From assembly GCA_041651015.1 (NCBI GenBank), contig JBAZKA010000005.1, positions 1,326 to 65,325 of the forward strand: a DNA stretch of 64,000 nucleotides, given 5' to 3'. Shown piece after piece: positions 97-24,641 of this stretch (the first letter of the stretch is position 1; every line of letters begins with the position of its first letter). The DNA is from Patescibacteria group bacterium (lineage in GTDB: Bacteria; Patescibacteriota; Patescibacteriia; Magasanikbacterales; GWA2-37-8). The notes beneath the pieces were generated by a model, which made no database searches, was not told the DNA's origin, and saw only the letters and a program-made list of their open reading frames with translations. Made by a program: the position numbers and the translations under genes.

Positions 97-1278
97 TTAT
101 TTTAAGATATTTAGCCACTCCCTCCCCGCTTTGTCCCAAGAATATTTTTTCACTTGTTCCAATCCTTTTTGGATATGCCAGTCGCGCAAATTTTTATTAT
201 TCAAAAGTTCATTCATGGCCAAGGCGAGTTGTTCGGGCCGAGTCGGGTCAATCAGATACGCGGCCGAGCCCGTGACCTCGGGTAAAGATGAACGATTGGA
301 AGTAATGACGGGCGTGCCTAGGGACATGGCCTCCAACACCGGAAAACCAAAACCTTCATACAAACTCGGATAGACAAATAAATCCGCAGAGGCGTAAAGC
401 GCGTCTTTGTCTTCGGGCGCGACAAAATTTATAAAATGAATTTTGTCGGCCAAATTGGAATTTTTCGCGCGTGCGTAAATTTCTTCATTTTTCCAACCCG
501 GCGCGCCGGCGATAACCAAGTGTTCAACTGATTGATTTTTCGCGCGGTATGTTTCAAAGGCTTCAATCAAGCCGATGATGTTTTTGCGTGGTTCAATCGT
601 GCCAAGGAATAAAATAAATTTTTCCGGAAGATTGTATTTTTGTTTGATGTCTGTGTTGCGTTTTGGCGTGTCATTCCCGACCTGATCGGGAATCCAGTCG
701 CACCGTCCTGGATCCCCGCCTTCGCGGGGATGACAAATACCAACCCCCGGATAAATCACTTTAATTTTTTCCGGACTGATTTTGTAATAATTCACAATAT
801 CGCGCTTGGTGTTTTCCGATGGGGTGATAATCACATTGGCGCGTTCACATTGATTTTTCGGACGAATGGCTTTGTGCCAAAAAAATTGTTTGCGTGTGGA
901 AAATTTCGGAAACAAGTCAAAAGAAATATCATGAATGGTCAAAATGTATTTTATTTCCCGCGACAGGGCGGTAAAGTTCAGGTTGGGGGAGAACCATAAA
1001 TCAATTTTTTCGGGGAAAACCTTATCCAATTTAGGATATTTGAAAACACCGAGGCCAAAGTTAAAAAATTTATTCGGGATATGCGAGTCAATAATTTTCA
1101 CGTTGGGAAAATCCCATTTTGGAATGTTGGCGGACACATCTCGGCTGGAATTGTAAAACAAAAAATATTGATTGTTTTTATCAAGATTAAAAATCGCATT
1201 CAGAAGTTCATAAGTGTATTCGCCGACTCCCGTGCGCGGGGCGGTCATGAGCGGGCGGATATCAATGCCGATGTTCAT
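97..1278 (-). CDS. Glycosyltransferase family 1 (GT4-type) with an in-frame GC-rich insertion
   Basis: C-terminal GT1/GT4 motif EGFGFPVLEAMSLGTPVITSNRSSLPEV and Rossmann-like layout. The conserved ...IKVIYPGV-//-KYNLPEKFILFLG segment is interrupted by about 27 aa (ICHPREGGDPGRCDWIPDQVGNDTPKR) encoded by a GC-rich palindromic element. Confidence 0.8.
   Translation of the reverse strand: MNIGIDIRPLMTAPRTGVGEYTYELLNAIFNLDKNNQYFLFYNSSRDVSANIPKWDFPNVKIIDSHIPNKFFNFGLGVFKYPKLDKVFPEKIDLWFSPNLNFTALSREIKYILTIHDISFDLFPKFSTRKQFFWHKAIRPKNQCERANVIITPSENTKRDIVNYYKISPEKIKVIYPGVGICHPREGGDPGRCDWIPDQVGNDTPKRNTDIKQKYNLPEKFILFLGTIEPRKNIIGLIEAFETYRAKNQSVEHLVIAGAPGWKNEEIYARAKNSNLADKIHFINFVAPEDKDALYASADLFVYPSLYEGFGFPVLEAMSLGTPVITSNRSSLPEVTGSAAYLIDPTRPEQLALAMNELLNNKNLRDWHIQKGLEQVKKYSWDKAGREWLNILK
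688..770. repeat. GC-rich palindromic element copy A, in-frame inside the GT4 gene
   Basis: Hairpins attcccga-cctga-tcgggaat and tccccgc-cttc-gcgggga. GC composition contrasts with the AT-rich host gene. Related to copies at 8494, 20193 and 24008. Confidence 0.5.
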
Positions 1279-1304
1279 ACCCCGTAGAAGAATTTTGAAT
1301 AAAT

Positions 1305-2426
1305 TTATCCTATCAAACTCGTTTGGTTCATTTTATTTTGGAAATCATCCCAATAATCATTGACCGCGCGCGTCATTTTTTCCTGGAACACGGCCGTGTC
1401 AAATTTTTTCGCGTGTTCGCGGATGGCCGCTGCGTCCCAATTGGCATGATTGAATTTCAATATCGTATCCAAAAGCGATTCCCAATTTTGTTTTTTAAAA
1501 AACACTCCGGTCTGGTTTTCCAAAATCGTTTCGGTCGCGCCACCGCTCTCGTAAGCGATGACCGGCCGGCCCGAAGCCATGGCCTCCACCGCGGTAATGC
1601 CAAAGTCCTCAATCTGCGGATTGATAAAAGCGCGGGCGCGGGACAGTAATTTTATTTTTTCTTCTTCGGAGATAACGCCGAGAAATTCAATATTCGGCCG
1701 GGCAATGTTTTTTAATTTTGTCAGCTCCGGTCCGTCGCCGAAAATTTTAAGCGGTTCTCGTAAACGGTTAAAAGCGGCGATTAGCAAATCAAATTTTTTG
1801 TAAGGCACCATGCGTCCACCCGAGACAAAATAATCCTCGATGTTGCTTGAAGTCATGAATTTATTAATTTCAATCGGCGGATGTATGATTGTGGACTCAC
1901 GGCGATAATATTTGCGGATTCTTTGTTCCACAGTTTTGGAATTGGCGATAAAATGGTCCACGCGGTCCGCGCTCATTTTGTCCCACAGGCGCAACCTGTG
2001 TAATATATTTGGTAAAAATGCCTTTACCGCCGGCGACTGATTTAGCTCGGTGATATATTCATTGGAATCAGCCCAGAGATAGCGGGGCGGGGTGTGGCAA
2101 TAAGAAATGTGCAAGGTGCCGGGCGGGGTAATGACGCCTTTGGCAAACGCGCTGGTGGAGGATAAGACCACGTCAAAATCGCGCAGGTCATGATGCTCGG
2201 TCGCGGATGGCATCCAGGGCAAATACCATTGAAAAGCCGAGCGGACAAATGGCATCTTGGCCAAAAACGATTCTTTGATTTTTTCTTGGTCAAAATAATT
2301 TATTTTTTTCTTATCATGAAACAAAACAAAAATTGGCGCCTCGGGCCAAGTTTCGTGGAGGGCTTTGAGTACTCGTTCGGCCCCTCCGTCTTGTGATAAA
2401 TAATCGTGGACTAATGCTAAACGCAT
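1305..2426 (-). CDS. Glycosyltransferase family 1 (GT4-type)
   Basis: Start chosen at internal MRLALVHDY (ATG at 2426). Shows the N-terminal GT4 substrate-domain pattern and C-terminal GRPVIAYESGGATETI motif. The longer ORF to 2507 would run into a repeat. Confidence 0.8.
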   Translation of the reverse strand: MRLALVHDYLSQDGGAERVLKALHETWPEAPIFVLFHDKKKINYFDQEKIKESFLAKMPFVRSAFQWYLPWMPSATEHHDLRDFDVVLSSTSAFAKGVITPPGTLHISYCHTPPRYLWADSNEYITELNQSPAVKAFLPNILHRLRLWDKMSADRVDHFIANSKTVEQRIRKYYRRESTIIHPPIEINKFMTSSNIEDYFVSGGRMVPYKKFDLLIAAFNRLREPLKIFGDGPELTKLKNIARPNIEFLGVISEEEKIKLLSRARAFINPQIEDFGITAVEAMASGRPVIAYESGGATETILENQTGVFFKKQNWESLLDTILKFNHANWDAAAIREHAKKFDTAVFQEKMTRAVNDYWDDFQNKMNQTSLIG

Positions 2427-2475
2427 ATAATCGATGCAAATATACGAATTTATTCGAATAATACGAATGTGCGAA
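2411..2475. repeat. Distal half of the 85-bp AT-rich promoter-region repeat
   Basis: rc(2411-2475) contains gtattattcgaataaattcgtatatttgcatcgattat, identical to 6461-6500. It abuts the GT4 start codon. Confidence 0.7.
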
Positions 2476-2859
2476 TCATTCAAAATTAGTTTTGTTTTTT
2501 GTTTCAATTTTTATTATTCTCATGGGTTTGAGAAAACGGCTCCTAAAATTTATCAGCATTCCAAGTTTGTAATTATTTAGTTGTAAATATTTTTGTAGCT
2601 GGTAGTAATCATTTTTGATAATGAATGGTTTTGCTTTTAATTCCAGAACAATTTTTTCATCGACCACGAAATCCATAATATTACCGTATTCTGTTTGTCT
2701 CGCTTCTCTTTTGAAAGCAATATTATTTTCTTTAAATTTCATTTCAAGTAGATCCCCGTATTGTTTTTCTCTACAGAAACGGCCGAGTTCGTTATGAACG
2801 GCATAACAAATTCCGTTTATTTTGTATGACAACTCCGGATAAATAATTTTCCCCTCCAT
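2476..2859 (-). CDS. GxxExxY-family protein (PD-(D/E)XK-like small protein often found in IVS or mobile insertions)
   Basis: ELSYKINGICYAVHNELGRFCREKQYGDLLEMKFKE matches the GxxExxY signature. The 127-aa ORF sits exactly inside an interrupted copy of an 85-bp repeat. Confidence 0.75.
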   Translation of the reverse strand: MEGKIIYPELSYKINGICYAVHNELGRFCREKQYGDLLEMKFKENNIAFKREARQTEYGNIMDFVVDEKIVLELKAKPFIIKNDYYQLQKYLQLNNYKLGMLINFRSRFLKPMRIIKIETKNKTNFE

Positions 2860-2860
2860 A

Positions 2861-2912
2861 GAATATTATTCGTATAATTCGCATGCATTCGTATATTAGT
2901 ATCGCGTTTCTA
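2861..2912. repeat. Proximal half of the 85-bp repeat
   Basis: rc(2861-2912) = aacgcgatactaatatacgaatgcatgcgaattatacgaataatattc, versus 6423-6460 gacgcgatgctaatatacgaacgcatgcgaattatac (2 mismatches). Confidence 0.7.
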
Positions 2913-4328
2913 CCAGGCTCCTTTTCTTCGGATTACCACAAACGGCGTCTTTATTAAAATAATCAAATCAATCAGTAGGCTCCAATTTTCAATATAAAAA
3001 GCGTCCAATTTTACTTCGTCTTCAAAACTCAAATCACTGCGCCCGGAAATTTGCGCCATGCCGGTGACGCCCGGCTTAATCGCCAAAACGATTTTGTGGT
3101 GTTTGGCGTATTGGGCCACCTCGCGCGGTTGATGCGGGCGCGGGCCGACCAAACTCATTTGCCCGATGAACACATTCCAAAATTGCGGGATTTCATCAAG
3201 GCTCCACTGGCGGATAAACCGTCCGAATTTCGTCACCCGCGGGTCGCCTGCGATTTTGTAAACCGGCCCCTCTTTAATGTTTTTCTTGGCAATCAATTCA
3301 GCTTCTTTTTTCAAGGCTTCGTCGCCGGACGCGCCAAATTGCAGGCCGGTGCAATCCTTTTGAAACATGGAACGGAATTTGTAAGTAAAGAATTTTTTGC
3401 CATAAGCGCCGACCCGTTCGTTTTTGTAAAACACCGGCCGTCCGGTTTCGCATAAAATAATAATGGAAACCACTAGATACACGGGCGATAAAATTATCAG
3501 CAAAATTAAACTGCCAATAATGTCAGATGCGCGTTTAAAAATCCTACCCCAGCCGGTCAAGCGCGTCCGGCGTAATTCAATAATCGGCACACCGGCGATG
3601 GTGGTGACAGTCATGTTGGTGGAGATTGAAGCAAACAAGTCGGCTGAATATTTGAAAGAAATGTTTTGGTCATTGGCAAAATCCACTGCTTGCAAGGCCC
3701 CGTCCTCATTGGCTTTTGGGTCGGTAAAAATAATTTCGTCCGGCTTGAGCGCGAGGATTTGTGTTTGGGTATTGGCGTCAAAACGGGAAAATGTGCCCAC
3801 TAATTTAAAACCGGAATTGGCGTGGCGTTTCAAGGAATTGGCAATCACTTCGGCCACGGCTTGCGAGCCGACCACAACGGTCCGGCGCAGTCCCACGCCA
3901 AATTTATAAAATAATTTTTTTAGCCCGAGCACGAGCATCCGGCCGATGAAAACATAAAGGATGGATAATAACCAGCCGGCGAGTACGAGGAATCGGGAAT
4001 CAAATTTTTGCAAAGTAAAAAATACGTAAATGGTGATGCCGGCAAATCCCGTGGAGCAGGCGAAAATTATTTTCGGCAAATCGCGCGCCATTTTTCTTTG
4101 TCCCGAGGTATTGTAGAGTCCGGCTAAAGCAAAAATTAAAACCCAAACTCCGGCCACGAACATTACAATCGGCCAGAATTTGTCCCAAGAAATATTAAAA
4201 AGCACGGGCCTGATGGCGCGCATGGATTCGGTGAAGCGGAGCGCGTAGGCGGTAAATCCGGCCAGCATTACGGCCGTGAAATCAATCGGTACTTGCGCCA
4301 CGGCAAAAGTTAGTTCAAATTTTTTCAT
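2910..4328 (-). CDS. Polyprenyl-phosphate sugar phosphotransferase (bacterial sugar transferase, WbaP/CpsE-like)
   Basis: Multiple N-terminal TM helices. C-terminal bacterial sugar transferase domain [44 protein letters not shown]. Confidence 0.85.
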
Positions 4329-6341: not shown

Positions 6342-6422
6342 TGTATCTTCCTCCTTTTGAGGTGAATGAACGTTTTGTTTGCTTAAACCCTATCAAAAAT
6401 ACAGTAAATGTCAAGTGTTTGA

Positions 6423-6503
6423 CGCGATGCTAATATACGAACGCATGCGAATTATACAAATATTTGTATTATTCGAATAAATTCGTATATTTGCATCGAT
6501 TAT
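6423..6503. repeat. Intact copy of the 85-bp AT-rich repeat
   Basis: gacgcgatgctaatatacgaacgcatgcgaattatacaaatatttgtattattcgaataaattcgtatatttgcatcgattat. Both halves match the split copy at 2411-2912 in inverted orientation. Confidence 0.7.
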
Positions 6504-6540: not shown

Positions 6541-7048
6541 GTTCATTAAAAAGCAATCGCTCGTCTTCGTCCTACGGACTACGCCGAGCAAGCCTTCTTT
6601 TCTAAGTGGGGCTTGCCCGCCGAAGCCCGAAGGGCGAAGGCGGGAGGAAAGTCCGAACACGCGACGTTAAATCGTAAAGGTAGCGGGTAACGCCCGTCCG
6701 TCCGCCCTAGGCGGACGAGAGGTGCGAGCAGAGACGTCTTTGGTTGAAAAGCCAAAGAGAGCAAACCCCAAGTTTGTGTTAATCATAAATGAGCTTAGCT
6801 TCAATCAAGGGGATAAAAGATTGAAGGTGAAACGGCAAAATCCTTACCTGCGTGCAAGAGCAGAGTTCCGTCCGCCTAGGCGGACTGGATAAAAAGTTCG
6901 CTCGCTTGATCGTGTAGAGCAATTTATGCGACAGAGAAATGATTGCCCCGGCTTCGTCCTGCGGACTACGCACGGGCAAGTGTCTTGAAAAAGATGAACT
7001 TGTCCGGCGAAGCGCAGCGGAGTCGGACAAAATTCGGCTTATTATAAT
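6541..7048 (+). ncRNA. rnpB: RNase P RNA (bacterial type A), unusually long (about 500 nt)
   Basis: Universal motifs GGAGGAAAGTCCGAACAC (P4 5' strand), GGGTAACGCCCG, AGAGAGCAAACCCC, AAGGTGAAACGG, and 3' GACAAAATTCGGCTTAT (compare ACAGAACCCGGCTTATCG). Ends before the 7057 terminator. Confidence 0.8.
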
Positions 7049-7140: not shown

Positions 7141-7959
7141 TTATCGCATTTGTTTTCGCCGTGTAAGCGATAAATAATTATTTTTACTGACAATTTTTTT
7201 TCCTGTTTCTTGTTCCATTTTTCGTCTGGCCAATCCTGACACACCGCCGCCACGCTTCGCGGTTTTTTTGTTTTCCGTAAGCCCAATGGGATTTTCCACT
7301 TTTGTAATTTCTGTTGTCGCCGCTTCACCGAGCATGGAAAATATCAATTCCAAATCATTCATGTGATCGCGTAAATTTTCTCGTTTCAATCCTTTGAGTT
7401 TTTTATGCTGGCTTGGAGTCAAACCAAACGCGGCTTTGGCGATTTCCGCGGTTAAAATCTCATATTCTTTTTTTTCTTTGACGCCGTGTTTGTTCCACTC
7501 GTCGGTTAAAGTTTCGCGAATTTCAATTCCGCGCATTCGTTTTTCAATCCAGCTATCGGGGTAGCCCTTTAATTTGTAAAGCATACGAGTGCGTTTGGCG
7601 CCGAGCTCGGGATTTTCAATTTCTTGAACGCGTTCATAACCGACTTTGGCCAGCCAGCGTTTGAACGGCTCGGCTTTGGGCGAGGGGATTGATTGGATGA
7701 TACGAAAAATACCTTCGGTGTTGGCACAGTTCATTTGTTGCCGTCCGCCGGCTGTGGCCACCCCAAGGGTATGGACAAATTGTCCATACCCTTTGGACAG
7801 TTCTTCGTCTCTGAGTCGTAGTTTGTTAATATAATCCTTTGGGTTTGGCGTGTCTGTTAACGCCGAGATAATATCTTCCACAACAAACCACCATTCCTTT
7901 TCAAATAACGTTTTGCGAATTTCCTTTTTTTGGAAAAGCGCGATTTTTGTGTCCTCCAT
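7141..7959 (-). CDS. DinD-like DNA-damage-inducible protein (Bro-N/KilA-N-type N-terminal domain)
   Basis: C-terminal KKLKGLKRENLRDHMNDLELIFSMLGEAATTEI...GGGVSGLARRKMEQETGKKIVSKNNYL parallels E. coli DinD (RKGLKKNQKILDHMGSTELAANLF...GRKVRQTIQELGGTMPEEL). Confidence 0.6.
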   Translation of the reverse strand: MEDTKIALFQKKEIRKTLFEKEWWFVVEDIISALTDTPNPKDYINKLRLRDEELSKGYGQFVHTLGVATAGGRQQMNCANTEGIFRIIQSIPSPKAEPFKRWLAKVGYERVQEIENPELGAKRTRMLYKLKGYPDSWIEKRMRGIEIRETLTDEWNKHGVKEKKEYEILTAEIAKAAFGLTPSQHKKLKGLKRENLRDHMNDLELIFSMLGEAATTEITKVENPIGLTENKKTAKRGGGVSGLARRKMEQETGKKIVSKNNYLSLTRRKQMR

Positions 7960-8440: not shown

Positions 8441-8472
8441 AAAATCCCCACCGCGCGCGCGGTGGGGATTTT
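8441..8472. terminator. GC hairpin terminator
   Basis: aaaatccccaccgcgcgcgcggtggggatttt. Confidence 0.6.
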
Positions 8473-8493
8473 GTATCTAATTTTTTTTTGCGA

Positions 8494-8534
8494 CAAGGGA
8501 TTCCTCCCCGCCCAAGGCGGGTCGGAATGACAAG
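8494..8534. repeat. GC-rich palindromic element copy B (intergenic)
   Basis: caagggattcctccccgcccaaggcgggtcggaatgacaag. This is the reverse-orientation homologue of 20193-20247 and shares the CCGCCCAAGGCGG core. Confidence 0.65.
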
Positions 8535-8589: not shown

Positions 8590-10413
8590 CTACACCTCTA
8601 TAACTACGGGGAGGACCATTGGTCTCTTCTCTGTTTTGGTAAACAGAAATTGCCCGACATAATCGCGGATTTTGTTTTTGATTTCATTGGTATCGGCCCA
8701 GGAAAGCGGGTCCGAATCGTGAATGATTTTTTTCACGCGATGGCGCAAGTCTTCAATCAATTCTTTGTTTTCTTTGAGAAAGACAAAACCACGTGAGATA
8801 ATATCCGGATTTTGGATCAATTGTCCGGTCTTGGAATCAACCGTGGCGATCACCACAATCATGCCATCCTCGGACAATACTTGGCGATCGCGAAGCACGA
8901 CATTAGTTTCGTCAGACACGCCCAGGCCGTCCACGAACACATAATCAGCTGGAATTTTCTCTTTGCTCAAGGTGCCCTTGCCTCGGGAAAATTCCATCAC
9001 CTGTCCGTTGTCGGCAATAAAAATATTTTCTTTCGGCACGCCGACTGATTCGGCCACGCGGGCGTTGTAGTGCAAGAGGAAGTGGTTGCCTTCAATCGGC
9101 ACAAAATATTTGGGATTGAGCAAACGTATCATCAACTTCACATCATCAGCTTTGGCGTGACCGCCGGCGTGCACGTCCATCATTTGATAATGAATGACCT
9201 CGGCGCCTTTGCGGAACAAAGTATCTTTGAGGCGCTGGACCGTGCGCTCATTGCCCGGGATGACCGAGGACGAAAACACCACCGTGTCGCCAGGCACGAG
9301 CCTGACCGAACGATGTTCGCCGTTGGCAATGCGCATGAGCGAAGCGTTTTTCTCGCCTTGAGCGCCGGTGCAGATTACCACCACTTTATTATTTGGAAAA
9401 TCGTTAATGCGTTTCATGTCCACAATAGTCTTTGGGTTGAATTTCATGTAGCCGAGTTCTTTGGCGATTTCAATATTGCTTTTCATGGAAAAGCCGTCAA
9501 TCGCCACCACCTTGCCGTTTTTTTCGCAAATCTCAATTATTTGTTTGATGCGGGAGAGCAAGGAAGCGAATGTGCCGATGATGAGGCGCCCCGGGGCTTT
9601 AGTGACAATGTCCACCAGATTGGTGGAAATTTCTGATTCGGAAAGCTGATGTCCCGGTTGAGAAGCATTTGTGGAATCGGACATGAGCGCGAGCACGCCT
9701 TGAGAACCGATTTGCGCGATGCGTTGTAAATCAGCGGGCGCTTCGCCGGCCGGCTGGTAATCAAATTTCCAGTCGCCTGAATGGATAATCGTTCCTTCCG
9801 GCGTATGAACGACAATACCCATAGTGTCCGGGATGTTATGGTTCAAATGGAAAAATTCCAATTCAAACGAACCGAGGCGGAGTTTGTCGTTTAAAGCCAC
9901 ATTGTGAATGTTGAGTGGCCGGACATTTTTAAAATCCTCCTGGCGTTTTTTGATAATTGCATTGGTGAGGGGCAATCCGTAAATCGGCGGATAGCCGATA
10001 AGTGGAATGAGGTGGGGGATGCCGCCGATATGGTCGTAGTGCGCGTGCGTGATAATCACGCCGCGGATATTTTTTTCTTTGCCTTTCAGATAATTCATGT
10101 TCGGGATGATGTAATCAATACCGGGCATGTCTTCTTCGGGGAATTGCAAACCCATATCAATGAGAATGATGTCGTTCTCATATTCAATCATGGTGCAGTT
10201 GCGTCCGACTTCCTCCAGACCACCAATAACGGCCACGCGGAGTTTGGATTCCAAATTGCGGAAACGCGAAAACGACGGCCGATTATTTTGCGGCGCGTTT
10301 TGGCGCGTATCGCGCCGGCGAAATTCTTGAGCGCCCTTGGGGCGCGTCTCATAAGTCCGGCGCGGGCGATGAGCCTCGCCTGACGGCTTATTGGGTGAAT
10401 AACGTGAGTTCAT
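8590..10413 (-). CDS. rnj: Ribonuclease J (metallo-beta-lactamase/beta-CASP) with Arg-rich N-terminal extension
   Basis: ITHAHYDHIGGIP zinc motif, beta-CASP and C-terminal domain. Carries an about 55-aa basic N-terminal tail. Confidence 0.9.
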   Translation of the reverse strand: MNSRYSPNKPSGEAHRPRRTYETRPKGAQEFRRRDTRQNAPQNNRPSFSRFRNLESKLRVAVIGGLEEVGRNCTMIEYENDIILIDMGLQFPEEDMPGIDYIIPNMNYLKGKEKNIRGVIITHAHYDHIGGIPHLIPLIGYPPIYGLPLTNAIIKKRQEDFKNVRPLNIHNVALNDKLRLGSFELEFFHLNHNIPDTMGIVVHTPEGTIIHSGDWKFDYQPAGEAPADLQRIAQIGSQGVLALMSDSTNASQPGHQLSESEISTNLVDIVTKAPGRLIIGTFASLLSRIKQIIEICEKNGKVVAIDGFSMKSNIEIAKELGYMKFNPKTIVDMKRINDFPNNKVVVICTGAQGEKNASLMRIANGEHRSVRLVPGDTVVFSSSVIPGNERTVQRLKDTLFRKGAEVIHYQMMDVHAGGHAKADDVKLMIRLLNPKYFVPIEGNHFLLHYNARVAESVGVPKENIFIADNGQVMEFSRGKGTLSKEKIPADYVFVDGLGVSDETNVVLRDRQVLSEDGMIVVIATVDSKTGQLIQNPDIISRGFVFLKENKELIEDLRHRVKKIIHDSDPLSWADTNEIKNKIRDYVGQFLFTKTEKRPMVLPVVIEV

Positions 10414-10573
10414 AAATATAAGTTGTCATGCTGAACTTGTTTCAGCATCTTTTGTCAGATCCTGAAACGAGTTCAGGATGACAGAATAATAAAATTAAAT
10501 GAATAAAACATAAGAAGAAGTATAATTCCGATTCGACTCGCGGAATTAAATAATTTTTGTTAGATCAGTGTCG

Positions 10574-10655: not shown

Positions 10656-10834
10656 GATTTAGTTTATAAAGTTGAAAGTTTGAAAGTTATAAAGTTTGCC
10701 GTTGATACGGCTTGGGTGCGGGAAGTAAATAATCAAGTAATTATAGCATAAAATAGGTGCCTTGTCAATAGCTGGGGAGATTTTTTTGCTGTGGCGGGGC
10801 GTTGCGACTTTATAACTTTATGAACTTTTTAACT

Positions 10835-12784
10835 TTAAAAACTCTTACCCAGCCACCAGCTGGTTTTAGTGTACCAAGAATTTATGTTGTTAAAGCGGTC
10901 GGCTGGAGAATAAATTCTTCCAACGTCAACACCTTGAACTTTTTTGTCTATTAGATATTCATACGTCGGAGAATACAGAAATATCGCCGGAATATCCTTG
11001 GCCAAAATGTCTTGGAATTTTTTGTAATAATCGGCGCGCGCCTCGGTGCTTGAGGCCACGCGGGCGTTTTCAATTAACGCATCAGCGTCTTTGTCCGAAA
11101 ACATCGCCAAGTTTAAGCCAGGGTATTCGGTTTGCGAAGAGTGCCAGAACGGAAATAAATCCGGGTCATCGCCCAAGATTTCGCTGAAGAGTAAAACATC
11201 ATAGGCGCGGCCTTTGAGCGCTTCACGGCTGATTTGTGAACTCGGGATGATAACGACATTGGTTTGTACGCCGACAGCGCGCCAGGCCAAAGCAATGGCT
11301 TCGGCCGCGGTTTCATATTCGGCCGTATCCACGGTCGTCAAATTGACGGAAAGAATTTCATTTTTGGAATTTTTGCGGTAGTAGGTTTGGTCCGGACGCA
11401 TACCGGAGCGCACCAAGTCCTCAGCCTGCTTTTGCAAATCGGCGAGCAAAGTGGTGGAGTTGGTGGCAAAATCCGGTTGAGTTTTCACGTCTGTTTCTTT
11501 TTCTTTTATCATGGCGTCGCGTTTCAAGGCGAAATATTCTTCGGGTGTGAGCCGAGTCCAATTTTTATCTAAAAGGGCGGCTGCCTCGTCAACATTGTAA
11601 GCAATTTTGGCGATATCAGGATGATAGCCAATAAAGTTGGACGGAATGGGAGCGTCTATTACTTCGCCCAGATCGCCCAAAGCCGCGTTCATTATGGTTT
11701 CTTTGTCTATAGCTTTGGCTAGAGCCGTGCGCACCTCCAAATTTTTGAGTGACGCCTTCGCACTTTGGTTAAAAAATATGGCGGTGTATTGGGGCAGGTG
11801 CAATTCGTAACTGTTAAAATTTTTACCGCCGTATGCCTCACTCAGATTGCGTGGTAAAAATGCCAAACCCATAACAACACGGCTTTTAAGTTCATCGGCC
11901 GCCGAAGCCTGGTCGTTATAAAATTTGAAAGAAAGTTTTTTCAAATATGTTTGTTCGCCAAAATAACGAGTGTTGCGTTCCAAAGTATATGTCTCCACAC
12001 CCTCTTCGTTTTTGGTCATTTTGGAAAATTTCCACGGGCCGGAAGTGACTGCCGGCTGTAAATTTTCTTTGGCCAAACGCAAATTGGCGGCCGTGGTCAT
12101 ACTAAATACATGTTCGGGCAAAATACCAACCGAGAGATTGGAGGTGAATGGCGCGAAAGCGTCTTTCAGAGTAAAAGTAATTTCATAGTCGTTGGTTTTT
12201 TCCACAATGACGCCGTTGAAAGCGGTGAAGAGGGGGCTGTTGGTTTCCGGATTTTGGATATATTCAAAAGTGAAGGCCACGTCATCGGCATTAATTTTTT
12301 CGCCGTCAGTCCAATACGCATCTTCGCGTAATTTGACGGTATAAATTTTACCGTCTTCGCTCACGGTATAGCCGGCGGCCAATTCGGGAATTAATTTTTG
12401 GTTCGCGCCGATTTTGAAAAGCCGGGCGTAAAGCAGGGGAGTGATATCCGCGTCAACATCATTGGCTGCGGCGAAAATCGGATTGATAAGTTTGGGTTGC
12501 CCGATCAAAGCCTCGCTGTATTCACCACCGATTTTCGGCGTTGACGATAAATGTTTGGGAACGAAAACAATTCCCCAGACAATCGAGGTCGCGGCGATGA
12601 CGAGGGCGCAAGCGAGAATGGCTATTTTTTCACCCCGGCCGAGAAATCTGCCAAGATAAGATAATTGCCGAAGAGATGGCCAAAAACGCCGGCGCAAGCT
12701 TTTGACCAGTTTTTTATCAAAATCACGAACCAGCGGCCTTGGCTCTTGCCGCAAAATCGGTCGGAAAAATTTTTTCCAATCCAT
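10835..12784 (-). CDS. ABC transporter substrate-binding protein, family 5 (OppA/DppA-like), membrane anchored
   Basis: N-terminal TM. SBP_bac_5 architecture (...DVDADITPLLYARLF..., ...GPWKFSKM...). Confidence 0.8.
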   Translation of the reverse strand: MDWKKFFRPILRQEPRPLVRDFDKKLVKSLRRRFWPSLRQLSYLGRFLGRGEKIAILACALVIAATSIVWGIVFVPKHLSSTPKIGGEYSEALIGQPKLINPIFAAANDVDADITPLLYARLFKIGANQKLIPELAAGYTVSEDGKIYTVKLREDAYWTDGEKINADDVAFTFEYIQNPETNSPLFTAFNGVIVEKTNDYEITFTLKDAFAPFTSNLSVGILPEHVFSMTTAANLRLAKENLQPAVTSGPWKFSKMTKNEEGVETYTLERNTRYFGEQTYLKKLSFKFYNDQASAADELKSRVVMGLAFLPRNLSEAYGGKNFNSYELHLPQYTAIFFNQSAKASLKNLEVRTALAKAIDKETIMNAALGDLGEVIDAPIPSNFIGYHPDIAKIAYNVDEAAALLDKNWTRLTPEEYFALKRDAMIKEKETDVKTQPDFATNSTTLLADLQKQAEDLVRSGMRPDQTYYRKNSKNEILSVNLTTVDTAEYETAAEAIALAWRAVGVQTNVVIIPSSQISREALKGRAYDVLLFSEILGDDPDLFPFWHSSQTEYPGLNLAMFSDKDADALIENARVASSTEARADYYKKFQDILAKDIPAIFLYSPTYEYLIDKKVQGVDVGRIYSPADRFNNINSWYTKTSWWLGKSF

Positions 12785-13024: not shown

Positions 13025-13219
13025 AATAGATAAATAAAGTATGAAAAAAGTATATCATTATTTATGTTTAGTGTCAATGGAGACGAATGGTGAAGAATGA
13101 CAAATATCCAATATCCAATGTCAAATGAATGACAAAGTTCAAATGACAAAATGCCGTAAATTTGACATTTGATATTAATAATTGTGGATATTATTTCGTA
13201 AATATGATAAAATATTTAT

Positions 13220-19439: not shown

Positions 19440-20492
19440 TTATGCTAATTTTTCAAGAAAATTTTGTAATTCACTCGGCAGGGGAGATTCAAATTCCATT
19501 TGTTTGCCGTCCAAATCAGTAAATCCCAATTTGGCTGAATGTAAGAATAATCGTCCGCATTTTTCATCCCAGACGCGTTTTTGTTTTTTTTGAAAATACA
19601 TTGGGTCGCCAACCACAGGATGGTTGTAGGCAAACATGTGCACGCGGATTTGATGTGTTCGTCCGGTGTGGATTTTGACGCGGAGCAAGGTAAAATTGAC
19701 AAAATGTTTCTCCACCCAAAATTCTGTTTTCGCTTCTTTTCCCCGCACACCAAGCTCGCCCGGCGAGTTGGTGTGGGGCCCGGCCATTAAATTTTGCGGT
19801 TGGCCTCTAAAAGTCAAAGGGATAGCCGCCATTTTGTCGGCCGTGTCTGAACGGCCAATGGGGAAATCAATCACGCCTTCCTCGCGTTCCACTTTGCCAT
19901 GCACCAAAACCAGGTATTCTTTGTTGATTGAACGGTTTTGAAATTGTTCCTTCAGGTGTTCAAACATTTTTTGTGTGCGCGCGACAACCATTAGTCCGGA
20001 TGCTTCTTTGTCCAAGCGGTGGACAATGCCCGGGCGCATTTTGTCTTCGCCGACTTTTTTAATTTCGGTATATTTTTTTACGAGCCAGGCCGATAACGAT
20101 TCTTTTTCATTGGCCATGGTCGGGTGGGTGAGCAGGCCGGTTGGTTTGTTGACCACAATGTAATCCGGTGTTTCGGCGATGATGTATATTTTTGTCATTC
20201 CGACCGAGTCCGCCTTGGGCGGACGAGCGGAGGAATCCCTTGACGTCTTCGCAACAAGGGATCTCTCGGCTTCGCCCTGCTCCGTTCGAGATGACACGAC
20301 GACAATTTTATCCCCGTCCTTAACTTTTTCGCCATACTTTTTTGGGGCTTTCCCGTTGATTTCAATCCTATTTTCGTCAATCATTTTTTGGACTTGGGAG
20401 CGGGTGATTTTTAATTCAGACGCCAAAAAAACATCCAATCGGGCGTCGCCTGTTTTGTTGATTATGGTTTTGTCTTTCATAGGCCTAATCAT
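19440..20492 (-). CDS. RluA-family 23S rRNA pseudouridine synthase (RluD-like) with S4 domain and in-frame repeat insertion
   Basis: S4 domain at N-terminus. Catalytic HRLDKEASGLMVVA. An about 36-aa insert (SSRTEQGEAERSLVAKTSRDSSARPPKADSVGMTK) lies in the S4-catalytic linker and is encoded by the GC-rich palindromic element. Confidence 0.85.
   Translation of the reverse strand: MIRPMKDKTIINKTGDARLDVFLASELKITRSQVQKMIDENRIEINGKAPKKYGEKVKDGDKIVVVSSRTEQGEAERSLVAKTSRDSSARPPKADSVGMTKIYIIAETPDYIVVNKPTGLLTHPTMANEKESLSAWLVKKYTEIKKVGEDKMRPGIVHRLDKEASGLMVVARTQKMFEHLKEQFQNRSINKEYLVLVHGKVEREEGVIDFPIGRSDTADKMAAIPLTFRGQPQNLMAGPHTNSPGELGVRGKEAKTEFWVEKHFVNFTLLRVKIHTGRTHQIRVHMFAYNHPVVGDPMYFQKKQKRVWDEKCGRLFLHSAKLGFTDLDGKQMEFESPLPSELQNFLEKLA
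20193..20300. repeat. GC-rich palindromic element copy C (tandem pair), in-frame in the RluD-like gene
   Basis: ttgtcattccgaccgagtccgccttgggcggacgagcggaggaatcccttg plus a degenerate second unit gcaacaagggatctctcggcttcgccctgctccgttcgagatgac. 108 nt keeps the reading frame. Confidence 0.65.
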
Positions 20493-20572: not shown

Positions 20573-20896
20573 TTAATATCTTCGGCAACGGACGGCGAAC
20601 TTATTTAAGTAAGTGTGTACGTCACTCGGGGCAAGCGCGAATTCAATCTCGTCGCTGACTTTTAGCGCGTCGGTGATGTTTTTGGCGCCGTCAACTAATG
20701 TCGCTTTATAAAAGTTCACTCCGCCTTCGTTGTGTCTGCGCGGAGACATTTTGCGGACATCGTGGGGAATTTTTGCAATAATTCCCGAATTGAAAAAGAA
20801 CTTGTGCGGTGAACCCGGCCGCATACCGACAATAAACTCCTTACTCCCAATCGGTTCTCTGGTTTCATCACAGAGCAGAATTTCTTTTTTTATCAT
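20573..20896 (-). CDS. Hypothetical protein (107 aa)
   Basis: Start at MIKKEILL (ATG 20896) preceded by GAGGAGGGG. The longer listed ORF would overlap the tRNA at 21011. Confidence 0.5.
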   Translation of the reverse strand: MIKKEILLCDETREPIGSKEFIVGMRPGSPHKFFFNSGIIAKIPHDVRKMSPRRHNEGGVNFYKATLVDGAKNITDALKVSDEIEFALAPSDVHTYLNKFAVRCRRY

Positions 20897-21010
20897 CGAA
20901 ACCCCTCCTCGCGGTTTGTTACGCCTCAGTAGATGATTGCCGGAATTAATGATAACACAAATAAATAAAAAACAATGTGGATAACTAAAAAAGACCATGA
21001 TGCGGTCTTT

Positions 21011-21085
21011 TGGTGCGCCTGGATGGATTCGGACCATCGACTTACACCTTATAAGGGTGCCACTCTACCGCTGAGTTACAGGCGC
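21011..21085 (-). tRNA. tRNA-Ile with apparent UAU anticodon (encoded CCA)
   Basis: rc = GCGCCTGTAACTCAGCGGTAGAGTGGCACCCTTATAAGGTGTAAGTCGATGGTCCGAATCCATCCAGGCGCACCA. Anticodon loop CTTATAA. Good cloverleaf. Confidence 0.6.
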
Positions 21086-21187
21086 TTAAGTTGCGAATAC
21101 TTTATCATTTTAATAAAAAATAATCAAGATAAAAAATTCAAGCGCGCTCCCGAGAGAACGCGCTTGCCGTAAAGAGCCTTGTTCCCA

Positions 21188-21313
21188 CTACATGTGGGAC
21201 AAAAACAGTGAGATCACGACTGCCACGGCGACTGTGGCGATCGCGACCACGACCCCGATGTCGAATTTGGACATTCTCCTCTTCGCGTCAAAATCTTTCG
21301 TTATCATAGCCAT
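21188..21313 (-). CDS. Hypothetical 41-aa small membrane protein
   Basis: MAMITKDFDAKRRMSKFDIGVVVAIATVAVAVVISLFLSHM preceded by AGGAGAT. Followed by hairpin caagcgcgctcccgagagaacgcgcttg (21141-21168). Confidence 0.35.
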   Translation of the reverse strand: MAMITKDFDAKRRMSKFDIGVVVAIATVAVAVVISLFLSHM

Positions 21314-21405
21314 TTTCGATCTCCTTTTTGGGTTAGCTAGCCCTACATCATAGCACAAAATAGCCATCTTGTCAAGACCCTGGTTTTCTAGTAAAATATC
21401 AACAC

Positions 21406-21933
21406 ATGAAAGACTACAACCGCCTAATTTTTGATAAAATCAACTCCTGGCAAGGCCGTAATCCTTGGCTGGATGCTTTTGGCCGGGCCGGCGCAGAATG
21501 GGTGATTGTGGCCATGCTCGGCTGGTATGCGGCGGCAACTTTTCTCGCCTGCTGGCCGGATTGGAAATCCGCGTTTGGTCCAATTATTATCTTGGCCGGT
21601 GTTTGGGTTTTGACATGGTGTGTTGATGTCGCTATTGGTTATTTTGTGCATGAAATGCGTCCTCACATTACCGAGCCGGCCACTCGTCAATTATTTAAGC
21701 CCATGATGGGTTGGAAATCATTTCCTTCCGACCATACCATGACCGCGTTTTTGATATTTTTCACAGCTTGCGTTTTTGGTTTGGCCGGCACGCCTGCGTT
21801 GTTTGTGTTGGCGCTCTGGGCCGCTTTCGGCCGGATGTTTTCCGGCGTGCATTATCCGATTGATATTATCGGCGGAATTTCCACGGCCGGTGTCGCGGCC
21901 ATTTGGTTAAAATTTATTTTGATTTTAATATGA
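21406..21933 (+). CDS. PAP2-family phosphatase (undecaprenyl-diphosphatase-like)
   Basis: PAP2 motifs HEMRP, SFPSDHT, SGVHYPIDIIGG. Multi-TM. Confidence 0.8.
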   Translation: MKDYNRLIFDKINSWQGRNPWLDAFGRAGAEWVIVAMLGWYAAATFLACWPDWKSAFGPIIILAGVWVLTWCVDVAIGYFVHEMRPHITEPATRQLFKPMMGWKSFPSDHTMTAFLIFFTACVFGLAGTPALFVLALWAAFGRMFSGVHYPIDIIGGISTAGVAAIWLKFILILI

Positions 21934-22628
21934 AAGCAATAATTCTCGCCGGAGGATTGGGCACGCGTCTGCGTCCACTAACCAACGACACGCCAAAACC
22001 GCTTCTGCCAATTCAAGGGCGCCCGATTATGGAGCATGCGATTTTGAATTTAAAAAGGCATGGCATTGAAGATGTTATTTTGTCCATCGGCTATTTATCC
22101 GAAAAAATCAAAAATTATTTTGGCGCCGGAGAAAAATTGGGCGTAAATTTATCATATTTTGTGGAGACTGAACCCCTCGGCACGGGCGGGGCGATCAAAT
22201 CGGCTGCAGCCGGTATTGACGAGCCGGTTTTTGTTATTTGGGGCGATAATTTGATGGATGTAAATTATACCGAATTAATGGAAGTTTTTTTAAAATATCA
22301 AAAAACTTTGGCCATGGTTTTAACACCGCGCGAAGATGTGGAACATTTTGGTGTGGCGAAATTGGAAGGAGATAGAGTTGTGGCTTTTGTGGAAAAGCCG
22401 GCGCGTGAATCCGCGCCATCAAACCTGATCAACGCGGGCGCGATTGTTTTGAATACGGCGAGACTGGCGATTTTGCCCGAAGGCAAATCGTCCATTGAAT
22501 ATGATTTTTACGAAAAACTTGAACCCGGAGAAATAGTCGCTCACATTCATCGCGGACAGTGGTATCCGACCGATACAATGGAAAAATACAGACATGCCGA
22601 TGATAATTTCCGACCGCCGGAATTATGA
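21930..22628 (+). CDS. Sugar-1-phosphate nucleotidyltransferase (NTP_transferase domain)
   Basis: MKAIILAGGLGTRLRPLTNDTPKPLLPI signature. Start moved to internal ATG 21930. Confidence 0.8.
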   Translation: MKAIILAGGLGTRLRPLTNDTPKPLLPIQGRPIMEHAILNLKRHGIEDVILSIGYLSEKIKNYFGAGEKLGVNLSYFVETEPLGTGGAIKSAAAGIDEPVFVIWGDNLMDVNYTELMEVFLKYQKTLAMVLTPREDVEHFGVAKLEGDRVVAFVEKPARESAPSNLINAGAIVLNTARLAILPEGKSSIEYDFYEKLEPGEIVAHIHRGQWYPTDTMEKYRHADDNFRPPEL

Positions 22629-23488
22629 AAAATTTTTTGTTGAATTTATTTCTATTGTTTTTTATCGCGGGCATTTCGGCCGCGGGTTTTTTTTATTATA
22701 AACATACGCACGCGCCAAAAATCGCGAATATAATTATCCCGAGAAAAGAAATTGACATCACAATTATTCCGGGCTGGAATTTGCGCGACATTGCCGATGA
22801 TTGGGTGAAGAAGGGGATTGTCTCATCCACCGAAGATGTCTATGTCTTACTTGGGAAACCGGCCTATAATTACAAGGCTCACGGCGAGACCGCGCCCGTG
22901 CTTGCCCTCGCGAATAATCCGGAATGGGCCGAACTTTTTGCCGACAAGCCGAATAATGTTTCGTACGAGGGTTATCTGATGCCGGATACTTATCGCGTTT
23001 ATGCCGATGCCACGCCCGAAGATGTTCTTAAAAAAATATTTACGAATTTGAATGATAAAATTACGTCCGAGATGCGCGCGGAAATTAAAAAGAAAAATAA
23101 GACGTTTTATGAAATTTTGACCATGGCTTCGGTGGTGCAAAAAGAAGCGCCAACCAAAGAAGAAATGGCGATGGTAGCCGACATCTTCTGGCGCCGGTAT
23201 GATAAAAATTGGGCTTTGCAATCCTGCGCCACGGTTAATTACATCACCGGCAAAAATGACCCGGGTGTTAGCTCGGGCGACAAAGACATTAACTCTCTAT
23301 TTAATACTTATAAATATCCAGGCTTGCCTCTGGGCGCCATCAGCAACCCTGGTCGTGGCGCGATTGAAGCGACTATTAATCCGCAAAATAATTCCTATTG
23401 GTATTTTATGAGCGACGCGGACGGCGTCACTCATTGGGCGAGGACCTTGGATGAGCACAATTATAATGTGGCGAAATATCTAAGATAA
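22625..23488 (+). CDS. mltG: Endolytic murein transglycosylase MltG (YceG family)
   Basis: N-terminal TM, YceG domain (ALQSCATVNYITGK...). Confidence 0.85.
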   Translation: MKNFLLNLFLLFFIAGISAAGFFYYKHTHAPKIANIIIPRKEIDITIIPGWNLRDIADDWVKKGIVSSTEDVYVLLGKPAYNYKAHGETAPVLALANNPEWAELFADKPNNVSYEGYLMPDTYRVYADATPEDVLKKIFTNLNDKITSEMRAEIKKKNKTFYEILTMASVVQKEAPTKEEMAMVADIFWRRYDKNWALQSCATVNYITGKNDPGVSSGDKDINSLFNTYKYPGLPLGAISNPGRGAIEATINPQNNSYWYFMSDADGVTHWARTLDEHNYNVAKYLR

Positions 23489-23489
23489 C

Positions 23490-24641
23490 ATGCTTACTTC
23501 AGACTTTGATTACAATTTACCCAAAGAATTGATCGCCCAGACGCCGGCCGAACCGCGCGATAGCGCCCGCCTCATGGTGATTGATAAAAACAAAAAAAGT
23601 TTGGAGCACAAACACTTTTATGATTTGCCGGATTATTTATGTACCGGTGATTTACTTGTTTGGAACAACACCAAGGTATTTAAAGCGCGTCTGCGCGGCA
23701 CAGTTTGTTTGGATGAAAAAGTAATAAAGAACGCGCCGAAAAATAATTCCGAAGTCATTTTGAATGAACCGAAAGTGGAAATATTTTTACTTCGGCCGAT
23801 GGAGAATCGTTTTGTTTGGAAGGTGCTGGCCAAACCGGGTAAGAAATTACAATTAGGCATGAAAATTATTTTTGCCGAAGATTTTTCTTGCGAGGTGATG
23901 TTGAAAGAATCGGACGGCACCGTGCTGGTGCAGTTTGAAGATGACGATATGATCGTGCGAGAAAAAGCCAATCGTTACGGCGAAGTGCCGACCCCGCCTT
24001 ATATTCACCCTGTTAAATCCCCGCAAAGCGGGGTGGCCGCCCAAGGCGGCCAATTTAACAGGGTAAAAAAGTTAGGTGATAATGAGCGATTGGTACTGGA
24101 TTATCAAACGGTTTACGCGAAGAACGAAGGCTCGGTGGCCGCGCCGACTGCCGGTTTTCATTTTACGCCCGAACTCATTGAAAAATTGAAATCACGCGGT
24201 GTGGAGTTTGCCGAGGTGACTTTGCACGTCGGACTCGGAACTTTTCAGCCGGTCAAAGAAGAAAAGTTGGAACAACACAAAATGCACGAGGAATGGGTGG
24301 AATTGACCGATAAAAATGCAGGTTTGATTAATCAGGCCAAGTCCGAAGGCCGGCGGGTGGTCGCGGTTGGCACCACCACGACGCGCGCTTTGGAAGCGAT
24401 TGCCGATGACCAAGGTTTTGTCCGCCCGTTTTCCGGTGATATAAATATTTTTATTTATCCCGGATACAAATTTAAAATTATTGACGCGCTCATCACCAAT
24501 TTTCATTTGCCCAAGTCCACCCTGCTCATGCTCGTCTCGGCTTTTGTGGATGATCGTAAATTTATTTTGGATTGCTATGGTGAAGCCGTTGAAAATAAAT
24601 ATAGATTTTTTTCTTTCGGCGATGCCATGCTGATAAAATAA
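23490..24641 (+). CDS. queA: S-adenosylmethionine:tRNA ribosyltransferase-isomerase with in-frame repeat insertion
   Basis: MLTSDFDYNLPKELIAQTP..., DRERYQTVYA and GSVAAPTAGFHFT motifs. About 20 aa (HPVKSPQSGVAAQGGQFNRV) are inserted between PPYI and the conserved ERL..YQTVYA block. Confidence 0.9.
   Translation: MLTSDFDYNLPKELIAQTPAEPRDSARLMVIDKNKKSLEHKHFYDLPDYLCTGDLLVWNNTKVFKARLRGTVCLDEKVIKNAPKNNSEVILNEPKVEIFLLRPMENRFVWKVLAKPGKKLQLGMKIIFAEDFSCEVMLKESDGTVLVQFEDDDMIVREKANRYGEVPTPPYIHPVKSPQSGVAAQGGQFNRVKKLGDNERLVLDYQTVYAKNEGSVAAPTAGFHFTPELIEKLKSRGVEFAEVTLHVGLGTFQPVKEEKLEQHKMHEEWVELTDKNAGLINQAKSEGRRVVAVGTTTTRALEAIADDQGFVRPFSGDINIFIYPGYKFKIIDALITNFHLPKSTLLMLVSAFVDDRKFILDCYGEAVENKYRFFSFGDAMLIK
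24008..24063. repeat. GC-rich palindromic element copy D, in-frame in queA
   Basis: ccctgttaaat-ccccgcaaagcgggg-tggccgcccaaggcggcca-atttaacaggg. Perfect outer 11-bp inverted repeat, two GC hairpins, CCGCCCAAGGCGG core. Confidence 0.7.

Follow-up and report, generated by a model that had tools for sequence, protein, structure and literature searches.

How do GC-rich palindromes come to lie, in frame, within conserved enzymes of bacteria whose genomes are tiny and streamlined? Patescibacteria (the Candidate Phyla Radiation, CPR) are such bacteria, Rickettsia being the classic reduced-genome case, and the question is raised by a stretch of 64,000 nucleotides from a Patescibacteria assembly (GCA_041651015.1, contig JBAZKA010000005.1), whose full length is called the window below. 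An original prediction, made from the sequence, had described four palindromes, one intergenic and three inside the open reading frames (ORFs) of a GT4 glycosyltransferase, the pseudouridine synthase RluD and QueA, and had likened them to Rickettsia palindromic elements (RPEs). All four are present, with reading frames running straight through the three intragenic copies (elements A, C and D below), and the RPE-like behaviour is borne out by dispersed repeats that occur both between genes and in frame at linkers, with the same unit types in other genes and genomes. The window, whose QueA has its closest homologues in Candidatus Magasanikbacteria, comes from a Magasanikbacteria-like Patescibacteria genome with several families of small, non-autonomous, hairpin-forming repeats. 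The best explanation, with a probability of about three in four, is that a function acting in trans spreads these non-autonomous palindromic repeats, which are tolerated and translated inside genes only when they are open, divisible by three in length and located in permissive linkers.

Tagged repeat units within and between genes

Elements A, B, C and E are repetitive extragenic palindromic (REP) units tagged with TGTC, whereas element D represents a different family. Coordinates in the window are as follows.

669-735, both strands: element A, an inverted doublet in the GT4 gene (left unit 669-696, plus strand; right unit 709-735, minus strand)
97-1278, minus strand: GT4/GT1-family glycosyltransferase, host of A, whose homologues carry the Pfam domains Glycos_transf_1 and Glyco_transf_4
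8490-8533, minus strand: element B, a single TGTC-tagged REP unit, intergenic between convergent genes
10424-10483, both strands: element E, an inverted doublet (GTCATGCTGAActtgTTCAGCATC / GTCATCCTGAActcgTTTCAGGATC), intergenic, between the tRNA-Leu gene and the RNase J start
20193-20299, both strands: element C, an inverted doublet in the RluD gene (left unit about 20193-20240, plus strand; right unit about 20260-20299, minus strand)
19440-20492, minus strand: RluD-type pseudouridine synthase (S4 and PseudoU_synth_2 domains), host of C and of a second palindrome
24004-24067, plus strand: element D, Y-shaped, in the queA gene, with termini TTCACCCTGTTAAAT / ATTTAACAGGGTAAA, two GC hairpins and a minimum free energy (MFE) of -41.3 in a 70-nt fold
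23490-24641, plus strand: QueA (S-adenosylmethionine:tRNA ribosyltransferase-isomerase), host of D

The units of A, B and C share a single plan, consisting of a T/C-GTC tag, a stem opening with AT, a short loop, a complementary arm closing in AT and a C-rich tail. In all seven units of A, B, C and E the tag is preceded by T, giving TGTC followed by AT; two units form an inverted doublet in A, C and E, while B has one unit. Element A had been placed at 688-770; its real span is 669-735 and it is a doublet in the order TGTCATTCCCGAcctgaTCGGGAATCCA, spacer, TGGATCCCCGCcttcGCGGGGATGACA, with tags facing outward and CCA tails facing inward across a spacer of 12 nt. Its left unit reads TGTC-ATTCCCGA-cctga-TCGGGAAT-CCA and its right unit, on the opposite strand, TGTC-ATCCCCGC-gaag-GCGGGGAT-CCA, each with an AT-opening stem of 8 bp and a CCA tail, around loops of 5 and 4 nt, respectively; the element as a whole has 63% GC and an MFE of -32.9. 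Element B (TTGTCATTCC-GA-CCCGCC-ttg-GGCGGG-GA-GGAATCCC) has a terminator-like hairpin (8443-8472) as its neighbour, about 18 nt away. It had been taken for the reverse complement of element C, which holds for the left unit of C, where 42 of 43 aligned bases are the same alongside two symmetric indels (5 and 6 nt), but not for C as a whole. In both B and C-left the stems are composite, measure 14-20 bp and are interrupted by a GA/GA internal loop; the terminal loops have 3-4 nt, and the tails are CCC in B and C. Element C otherwise follows the plan of A with longer stems, and its spacer is itself a hairpin (CCCTTG...CAAGGG). The units of E (GTCATGCTGAAC...GTTCAGGATGAC) have 8-bp stems, 4-nt loops and tails of C plus other bases. 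The elements measure 67 bp (A), 43 bp (B), 107 bp (C) and about 64 bp (D), with a GC content of 55-65% except in E, where it is lower (42%); the background is the 44.6% of the window and not the roughly 40% originally given.

A tag-plus-hairpin detector, run on the window and on a reversed-sequence control, found six GTCAT-tagged units in the former versus one in the latter and exposed the intergenic doublet E, which had escaped the original prediction; it missed C-right, so that the 64 kb hold seven units. The corresponding densities per 100 kb were about 9 in the window, 2.2 in other Patescibacteria loci and 1.3 in other bacteria, with the listed QueA loci from GTDB (mostly Bacillota, two Magasanikbacteria) serving as the control for composition and density. 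The core CCGCCYWRGGCGG occurs five times in the window versus 0.18 expected, a count reached in none of 100 shuffles; one of the five occurrences lies within the RNase P RNA and another at an ORF end. By itself, GTCATTCC is not significantly above chance (four matches in the window versus 1.96 expected) and was dropped as a stand-alone marker, as it needs its hairpin context. A whole-window repeat search did not recover the family because its copies are too short and bear indels. When 70-nt folds were slid across the window (mean -13.8 kcal/mol, standard deviation 5.4; 1 percentile at -28.7 and 0.1 percentile at -36.1 kcal/mol), D (-41.3 kcal/mol) and C (-37.0 kcal/mol) lay past the 0.1 percentile and A (-33.1 kcal/mol) past the 1 percentile. 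In an Rfam 15 search of the window, only two tRNAs reached the gathering score, and around C and D, even at a permissive E-value, matches stayed at chance level (at most 23.1 bits versus gathering scores of 35-100).

Units of this type also occur elsewhere. The pattern GTCATTCCGA-N5-35-GAGGAATC matches at least 120 stretches in IMG/VR, on contigs of 34-66% GC, and among the matches listed there are often several per contig, often as inverted doublets. In a Magasanikbacteria genome (GCA_016182085.1, locus L331), seven E-type, C-like or A-like units lie within 21 kb, including two spacers, uvrA-rplS and one beside the L11 gene, that hold A-like doublets. One of its units (13070-13093) is identical to the left unit of E, at a different locus, though the QueA proteins of the two genomes share 64% identity.

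A separate Y-shaped family

The assignment of all four copies to one family with gtcattcc/ggaatccc arms was dropped, since D has neither the tag nor these arms and its termini define another family; what it shares with B and C are small GC hairpin modules. In D, an outer stem (ACCCTGTTAAAT/ATTTAACAGGGT) surrounds the hairpins CCCCGC-aaa-GCGGGG and GGCCGCC-caa-GGCGGCC, the former having a loop of three nucleotides rather than the four proposed. Its in-frame translation is HPVKSPQSGVAAQGGQFNRV, and SPQSGVAAQGGQFNR is a tryptic peptide predicted to span the QueA insert.

A metagenome scan with CCTGTTAAATCC-N6-36-ATTTAACAGG revealed D-type elements in at least 120 loci, whose conserved termini reach TTYACCCTGTTAAAT and ATTTAACAGGGTRAA, a 15-nt inverted pair beyond which the flanks are not conserved. 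With up to two mismatches allowed per terminus, no D element was found in 270 kb of other Patescibacteria loci, 995 kb from other bacteria or 1.09 Mb of IMG/VR loci. The window holds a single copy, and multiple copies occur in 19 of the matches listed. Exactly two interior hairpins are present in 104 of the 120 copies listed, with stem sequences that vary widely while the pairing is kept, and the MFE per nucleotide of the interior is twice that of shuffles. In a MAFFT alignment of the copies, the interior hairpins are misaligned owing to their variable length, so that RNAalifold detected nothing but the outer stem, and interior pairing was then measured copy by copy.

About one third of the D copies listed lie inside ORFs of at least 150 aa that belong to housekeeping genes. 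Hosts with in-frame copies, identified by inspection of translations rather than by profile scan, include PpsA (phosphoenolpyruvate synthase), TopA, NrdD (anaerobic ribonucleotide reductase), SMC, RNase J and UvrC (three copies), as well as MurD, UvrB, MnmA, TsaD, TilS, RsmH and RlmN. Intragenic copies are nearly always read as (Y/H)PVKS...FNRV(K/N), in the window QueA as elsewhere. Among the matches listed, the length is divisible by three in 31 of 33 intragenic copies, versus remainders of 0, 1 and 2 in 35, 21 and 15 copies outside ORFs; likewise, 39 intragenic copies are in the sense orientation and 3 in antisense, favouring the strand that reads PVKS...FNRV, whereas listed copies between co-directional genes show no bias (14 versus 16). 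Since the intergenic copies lack an orientation bias, the constraints on intragenic ones look like translational selection acting on stops and on the tolerability of the peptide, and the bias would then stem from translation and not from a strand-specific RNA role or strand-specific insertion.

Further observations concern individual D loci. One UvrC gene (L237) carries three in-frame D-type elements, YPVKYREAVILPKAKLFNRV, HPVKSSPSEVFAEGEQFNRV and HPVKSLQGKFNRV. Some copies lie within short tandem CGCAGATTA motifs that mimic a 9-nt target duplication (L211, 2040-2110; L277 and L293), and the ACGCAGATT repeats flanking a few D loci were rejected as target duplications, being part of a local tandem motif. 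An attC-like reading of GTTAAAT/ATTTAAC was also dropped, on the argument that the polarity of the two motifs is opposite to that of integron attC sites.

Insertion sites in the host proteins

In GT4, element A reads in frame as CHPREGGDPGRCDWIPDQVGND within the interdomain linker that follows ...KVIYPG(V/I). This linker measures about 10 aa in homologues of about 75% identity (P0124, P0125 and P0127), contains an in-frame E-type doublet read as HPELVSGS...MLKQVQHD in others (P0122, P0142 and P0145), and shows further REP-like translations in P0123, P0131, P0132 and additional homologues.

In RluD, element C reads in frame as VSSRTEQGEAERSLVAKTSRDSSARPPKADSVGMT at the linker from the S4 to the catalytic domain. 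A strain of 97% identity from a separate study (P0241, locus L330) has C with five substitutions; an A.C position of C has there become G.U through changes on both sides. More distant relatives (P0242, 84%, L325; P0243 and P0244, about 75%, L328 and L329) instead show a 28-aa linker of ordinary, AT-rich sequence; C therefore replaced a linker rather than being simply added, and the net gain is about 10-12 aa. A second palindrome lies in the same gene:

19741-19783, in the minus-strand RluD gene: a 45-nt insertion whose hairpin (about 18 bp) has no tag, reading in frame as ...AGPHTNSPGELGVRG

It is common to the window, P0241 and P0242 (L325), and absent from P0243/P0244 (L328) and from Escherichia coli RluD.

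In QueA, the linker after PPYI measures about 15 aa in most of 120 homologues; in 12 of the 120 it is lengthened by extra segments. Another hotspot is found close to residue 307, where L331 carries a C-like doublet in frame (FCHSDRPARGGEWRNPL...ARDD). The Thermotoga maritima enzyme (1VKY) has 4 residues at the D site versus 28 in the window protein, for which AlphaFold assigns residues 167-196 a pLDDT confidence below 50 and no secondary structure. The homologue P0002 (86% identity) lacks D, but its linker is too diverged for a base-precise empty site to be obtained, and the linker of P0003 may be a decayed D remnant, although this is only suggestive. D occupies the same nucleotide junction of the gene (CCGCCNTATRTT|CAYCCTGTTAAAT...) in three lineages that are 65-68% identical; the termini are kept even at silent third codon positions, and the interiors are wholly different and perfectly paired. 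In a neighbour-joining tree of QueA, clean elements are missing from the sequences that branch closest to the three clean D carriers, and for carrier P0033 this neighbour, P0011, has a degenerate copy reading HPIKS.

At the linkers in question, relatives of 75-86% protein identity are without the elements, show ordinary AT-rich sequence or hold palindromic elements of other kinds, and solved structures have gaps at the insert positions of QueA and RluD. None of these closest relatives encodes the same extra residues of QueA, RluD or GT4 in ordinary AT-rich sequence, the pattern that the original prediction had named as evidence against insertion. The inserts, of which 40-43% is Pro, Gly, Arg and Ser, have lengths of 22 aa in A, 35 aa in C and 20 aa in D, within the predicted 20-37 residues; that of C was a replacement instead of a simple addition. 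The reverse case also exists, in that some elements of relatives, such as an E-type doublet in the uvrA-rplS spacer, occupy positions left empty in the window.

Tolerated insertions as the probable explanation, and its competitors

The observed repeat families, their presence or absence among relatives, the constraints on frame, length and orientation, and the location in linkers can be accommodated by the following scheme. Copies would have inserted into the coding DNA of GT4, RluD and QueA at surface loops or at linkers between domains, with C replacing such DNA. Their spread would be by transposition, probably on hairpinned single-stranded DNA as for REP/IS200-like systems. Inserts would then be transcribed and translated within the enzyme as 20-35 hydrophilic, probably disordered residues. 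Hairpin-forming elements may persist anywhere in the genome and the inserts are presumably neutral; a selection filter rather than a function would act on them, the intragenic survivors being those with no stop, a length divisible by three, a tolerable peptide and a permissive site. Such a filter for survivable sites would let different element families accumulate at shared linkers from one lineage to another.

The hairpins might instead be functional nucleic-acid structures under selection, such as mRNA stabilisers, RNase processing sites, pause sites of transcription or translation, or sites at which a host protein binds or recombines, with the peptides as a by-product. This is unlikely, although the preserved pairing of D interiors with fully different stems speaks for it, as do the symmetric changes on both arms between B and C, the A.C to G.U change of C in L330 and the retention of D termini at third codon positions in diverged QueA genes; in addition, REPs generally lie downstream of genes and have been proposed as RNA elements (PMC3733652). 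However, the even orientation of intergenic D copies speaks against an RNA role tied to one strand, positional conservation is lacking among close relatives, families swap at the same linker and no Rfam family matches, while palindrome symmetry can persist through DNA-level processes, such as repair templated within a strand or a mobilising enzyme's recognition of the palindrome, that need no host function. Removal or bypass of the elements, as intron-like RNA or as 'hop' elements like the byps of yeast mitochondria, would keep them out of the protein altogether, and could be thought to suit compact, stable hairpins inside genes for core functions (DNA topology and repair, synthesis of nucleotides and cell wall, tRNA modification) such as TopA, NrdD, UvrB, MurD and TsaD as well as a QueA insert with no confident AlphaFold structure. 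It is nevertheless very unlikely: bypass would lift constraints on frame and stops, yet all three intragenic copies of the window are open and in frame, 31 of 33 listed intragenic D copies keep their divisibility by three, such copies are confined to one orientation and one reading frame, and no ribozyme or intron family matches.

An origin of the extra segments in place, as lineage-specific loops formed by local duplication or slippage, would fit linkers of QueA, RluD and GT4 that vary in length in all relatives, and 64 kb in which D occurs once and tagged units are few. It becomes highly improbable in view of the same termini and unit architecture in unrelated genes, spacers and many genomes, the near identity of intergenic B and coding C-left, and the ordinary AT-rich sequence at these sites in the closest relatives. 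As the source is metagenome-assembled and hairpins can trouble assemblers, chimeric joins or binning errors at GC-rich hairpins could also be suspected, but the chance of such an artefact is negligible: an independent Logan assembly (SRR8542065, L001) contains the same genes with identical elements, C recurs in L330 from another study, the palindromic families recur in many unrelated assemblies, and reading frames are intact across every junction.

Several observations weigh against tolerated, trans-mobilised repeats as the preferred explanation. No sign of recent movement was found, as no window copy showed strain-level polymorphism and the strain of 97% identity already holds C. The replacement of the RluD linker by C calls for an extra deletion step or a recombination event. 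Copy counts for this organism cover 64 kb only, and no Y1_Tnp domain or other sign of a transposase turned up when 30 window ORFs were scanned with Pfam. For D, no consistent target-site duplication was seen (a 6-nt flanking repeat in 5 of 119 copies listed), and no pair of solo termini at the spacing of an insertion sequence (IS), as expected of an autonomous partner, occurs in the 120 loci listed. The shared QueA junction of D in three lineages, with its retained termini and its unlike but paired interiors, is not what purely neutral decay would predict for selfish DNA; site-specific insertion that recurred, conversion by copies elsewhere in the genome, or selection for DNA or RNA structure are possible causes. 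That D-type elements are an undescribed, Patescibacteria-wide family with site-specific insertion or maintenance by conversion is a tentative and rather doubtful proposal. If true, it would imply structure-guided insertion, homing or cassette exchange by some enzyme that writes loops into essential proteins of ultra-small bacteria.

If tolerated insertion of trans-mobilised repeats is general, some of the lineage-specific insertions and odd length variation in CPR proteins would find an explanation, as would many spurious small ORFs and recurring peptides in metagenome annotations (CHSE..EESL, VIPxE..EMT, HPELVSGS..KQVQHD and YPVKS..FNRV), and gene callers and protein aligners would gain simple DNA signatures by which inserts can be masked. 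It would also widen the host range of CGTC-tagged REPs and make D a new, well-defined family with abundant natural variation, of use in the hunt for the mobilising enzyme.

Other hairpins and loci of the window

A third type of palindromic repeat is found further downstream:

60446-60523, intergenic: element F, a three-hairpin cluster (CCCCCTattAGGGGG, GGACAGAGG...CCTCTGTCC, CCCTCTCCtaaaaGGAGAGGG)

Its hairpins include CCCCCT..AGGGGG and CCCTCTCC..GGAGAGGG. An F-type hairpin was confirmed in the DNA as an in-frame insert in the P0033 QueA, and the peptides SPLEGGKGDV (P0031) and SPLEGGRG / PLDEGGKGGV (P0059) suggest, from their sequence, further in-frame F copies.

The first 25 kb of the window encode glycosyltransferases, RNase J, UvrA, RluD, Gmk, L19 and QueA, together with two tRNAs and a divergent RNase P RNA. 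The latter (class A, 6603-7048, plus strand) scores 49 bits versus a gathering score of 100 and spans 446 nt versus the 367 nt of the model, being both divergent and expanded; an extra helix holds TCCGCCCTAGGCGGACGAG, which resembles the interior of element C, and CCGCCCTAGGCGG at 6702 was not counted as a further element as it lies within this RNA. RNase J (8590-10413, minus strand, 607 aa) has a GC-rich, hairpin-forming stretch (10288-10390) in its N-terminal extension, 24 nt of which are missing in L328, and its N-terminus hosts D-type elements in other genomes (L205 and L222). The ORF at 7141-7959, encoding a Bro-N domain protein, contains a perfect 14-bp palindrome (AAGGGTATGGACAA-a-TTGTCCATACCCTT, 7736-7805). 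AT-rich inverted repeats of 41-55 nt that are 84-93% complementary (2427-2481, 2867-2907 and 6422-6503; motifs such as ATACGAAT and TATTCG) sit in spacers bracketing the glycosyltransferase/sugar-transferase block, and another AT-rich motif, AAAGTTnATAAAGTT, occurs in both orientations in the spacers at 10806-10843, 33729-33773 and 37198-37236. A tRNA-Ile gene (21011-21085, minus strand) has the anticodon TAT, which is unusual for bacteria; in the relative L002, a 42-nt GC hairpin is inserted right beside the corresponding gene.

Beyond these genes, a giant ORF (38158-46341, plus strand, 2727 aa) is followed by a cluster at 51435-63666 with PrgI, TraC/VirB4-like and TraG P-loop domains, and together they resemble a locus of the type IV secretion or conjugation kind. 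Two or three tandemly duplicated gene cassettes of about 1.9-2.0 kb lie at 45947-50029 (repeats D2-D4 and D13-D14), where 12-nt periodic arrays (46717-46957 and 48667-48895) occur in small minus-strand ORFs.

Relation to known palindromic elements

CGTC-tagged REPs have an unpaired tetranucleotide tag at one end that is often TGTC, with CCTC also accepted, a stem (8-9 bp) opening with two complementary A/T positions, loops of 4-5 nt, an unpaired tail with the consensus CCA, and common inverted dimers with structured spacers (PMC3733652). They are dispersed in many copies per genome, mostly between unidirectional or convergent genes, no dedicated transposase has been reported for them, and in several species intragenic copies code for 20-30 aa (PMC3733652). 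CGTC-1 has been equated with Neisseria dRS3, and CGTC-1 and CGTC-4 with RPE-6 and RPE-4 of Rickettsia (PMC3733652, Di Nocera, De Gregorio & Rocco 2013). Judged against this published description rather than against consensus sequences, A, B, C and E appear to fit the CGTC-REP superfamily. They share the unpaired (C/T)GTC tag, found in all seven units. Stems, loops and tails correspond in part, with 8-bp stems of A-T/T-A start in A-left (ATTCCCGA), A-right (ATCCCCGC) and both E units but AT-opening composite ones in B and C-left, loops of 4-5 nt in A and E but 3-4 nt in B and C-left, and the CCA tail in A. Further likenesses are inverted dimers with structured spacers, sites mostly downstream of genes or between convergent genes (B and E), some intragenic copies, and no evident dedicated transposase. 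They differ in their host, as Patescibacteria are not listed among the phyla of PMC3733652, in the longer stems of B and C-left (TCC, a GA/GA internal loop and a further 6-11 bp) with tails of CCC instead of CCA, and in intragenic copies that seem uncommonly frequent, and gathered at the same linkers, in the homologues of these three hosts GT4, RluD and QueA. Because RPE-4 and RPE-6 count as CGTC REPs, the likeness of A-C and E to RPEs may reflect a true family relationship.

RPEs were reportedly described by Ogata et al. in 2000 and 2002 as RPE-1 to RPE-8. They are interspersed palindromic repeats of 100-150 bp, both intergenic and in frame within coding genes (PMC1779305). The window elements resemble them in being intergenic as well as coding, in their in-frame position within conserved enzymes of a reduced genome, in inserts at gap positions of homologues and in the lineage-specific proliferation of families. 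In contrast, they measure 43-107 bp, so that C alone reaches the RPE size; RPE families rest on hidden Markov models derived from Rickettsia, whereas the likeness drawn here concerns behaviour and the statement in PMC3733652; and the three-way-junction architecture of D is not known to have been described for RPEs. D and F act like intragenic REPs or RPEs, and a description of their architectures could not be found in the literature searched. Nor did a full-text search, of incomplete coverage, find literature linking MITEs (transposable elements of the miniature inverted-repeat type), RPEs or palindromic elements to CPR/Patescibacteria.

REPIN/RAYT systems, with GTAG REPs and the transposase TnpA-REP, are said to have been characterised by Bertels and Rainey. 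Similar to REPINs, the doublets of the window are non-autonomous, multi-copy pairs of inverted REP units folding into one long hairpin, but the tag is (C/T)GTC and not GTAG, no RAYT/Y1 transposase was found in the window and REPINs are essentially extragenic; the TGTC tag and the absence of Y1_Tnp from the 30 window ORFs scanned speak against membership. D resembles MITEs in its terminal inverted repeats of about 15 nt, small size, lack of coding capacity and multi-copy contigs (review PMC10969869). It differs in being smaller than typical MITEs, with a variable yet double-hairpin interior, and was not assigned to them, as neither a consistent target-site duplication nor a parent IS with D termini was detected.

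GC-rich mobile hairpins that invade coding genes are also represented by the GC clusters or byp elements of yeast mitochondria and the double-hairpin elements of fungal mitochondrial DNA. Like byps, the window elements are GC-rich hairpins inside genes of a more AT-rich, compact genome; unlike byps, which are bypassed by the ribosome and need not keep the frame, they retain both the frame and a length divisible by three, which implies translation. Intragenic REPs and RPEs are already established (PMC3733652, PMC1779305), and A-C and E extend this kind of element to a new phylum. Selfish DNA thus seems to shape protein loops in Patescibacteria as it does in Rickettsia.

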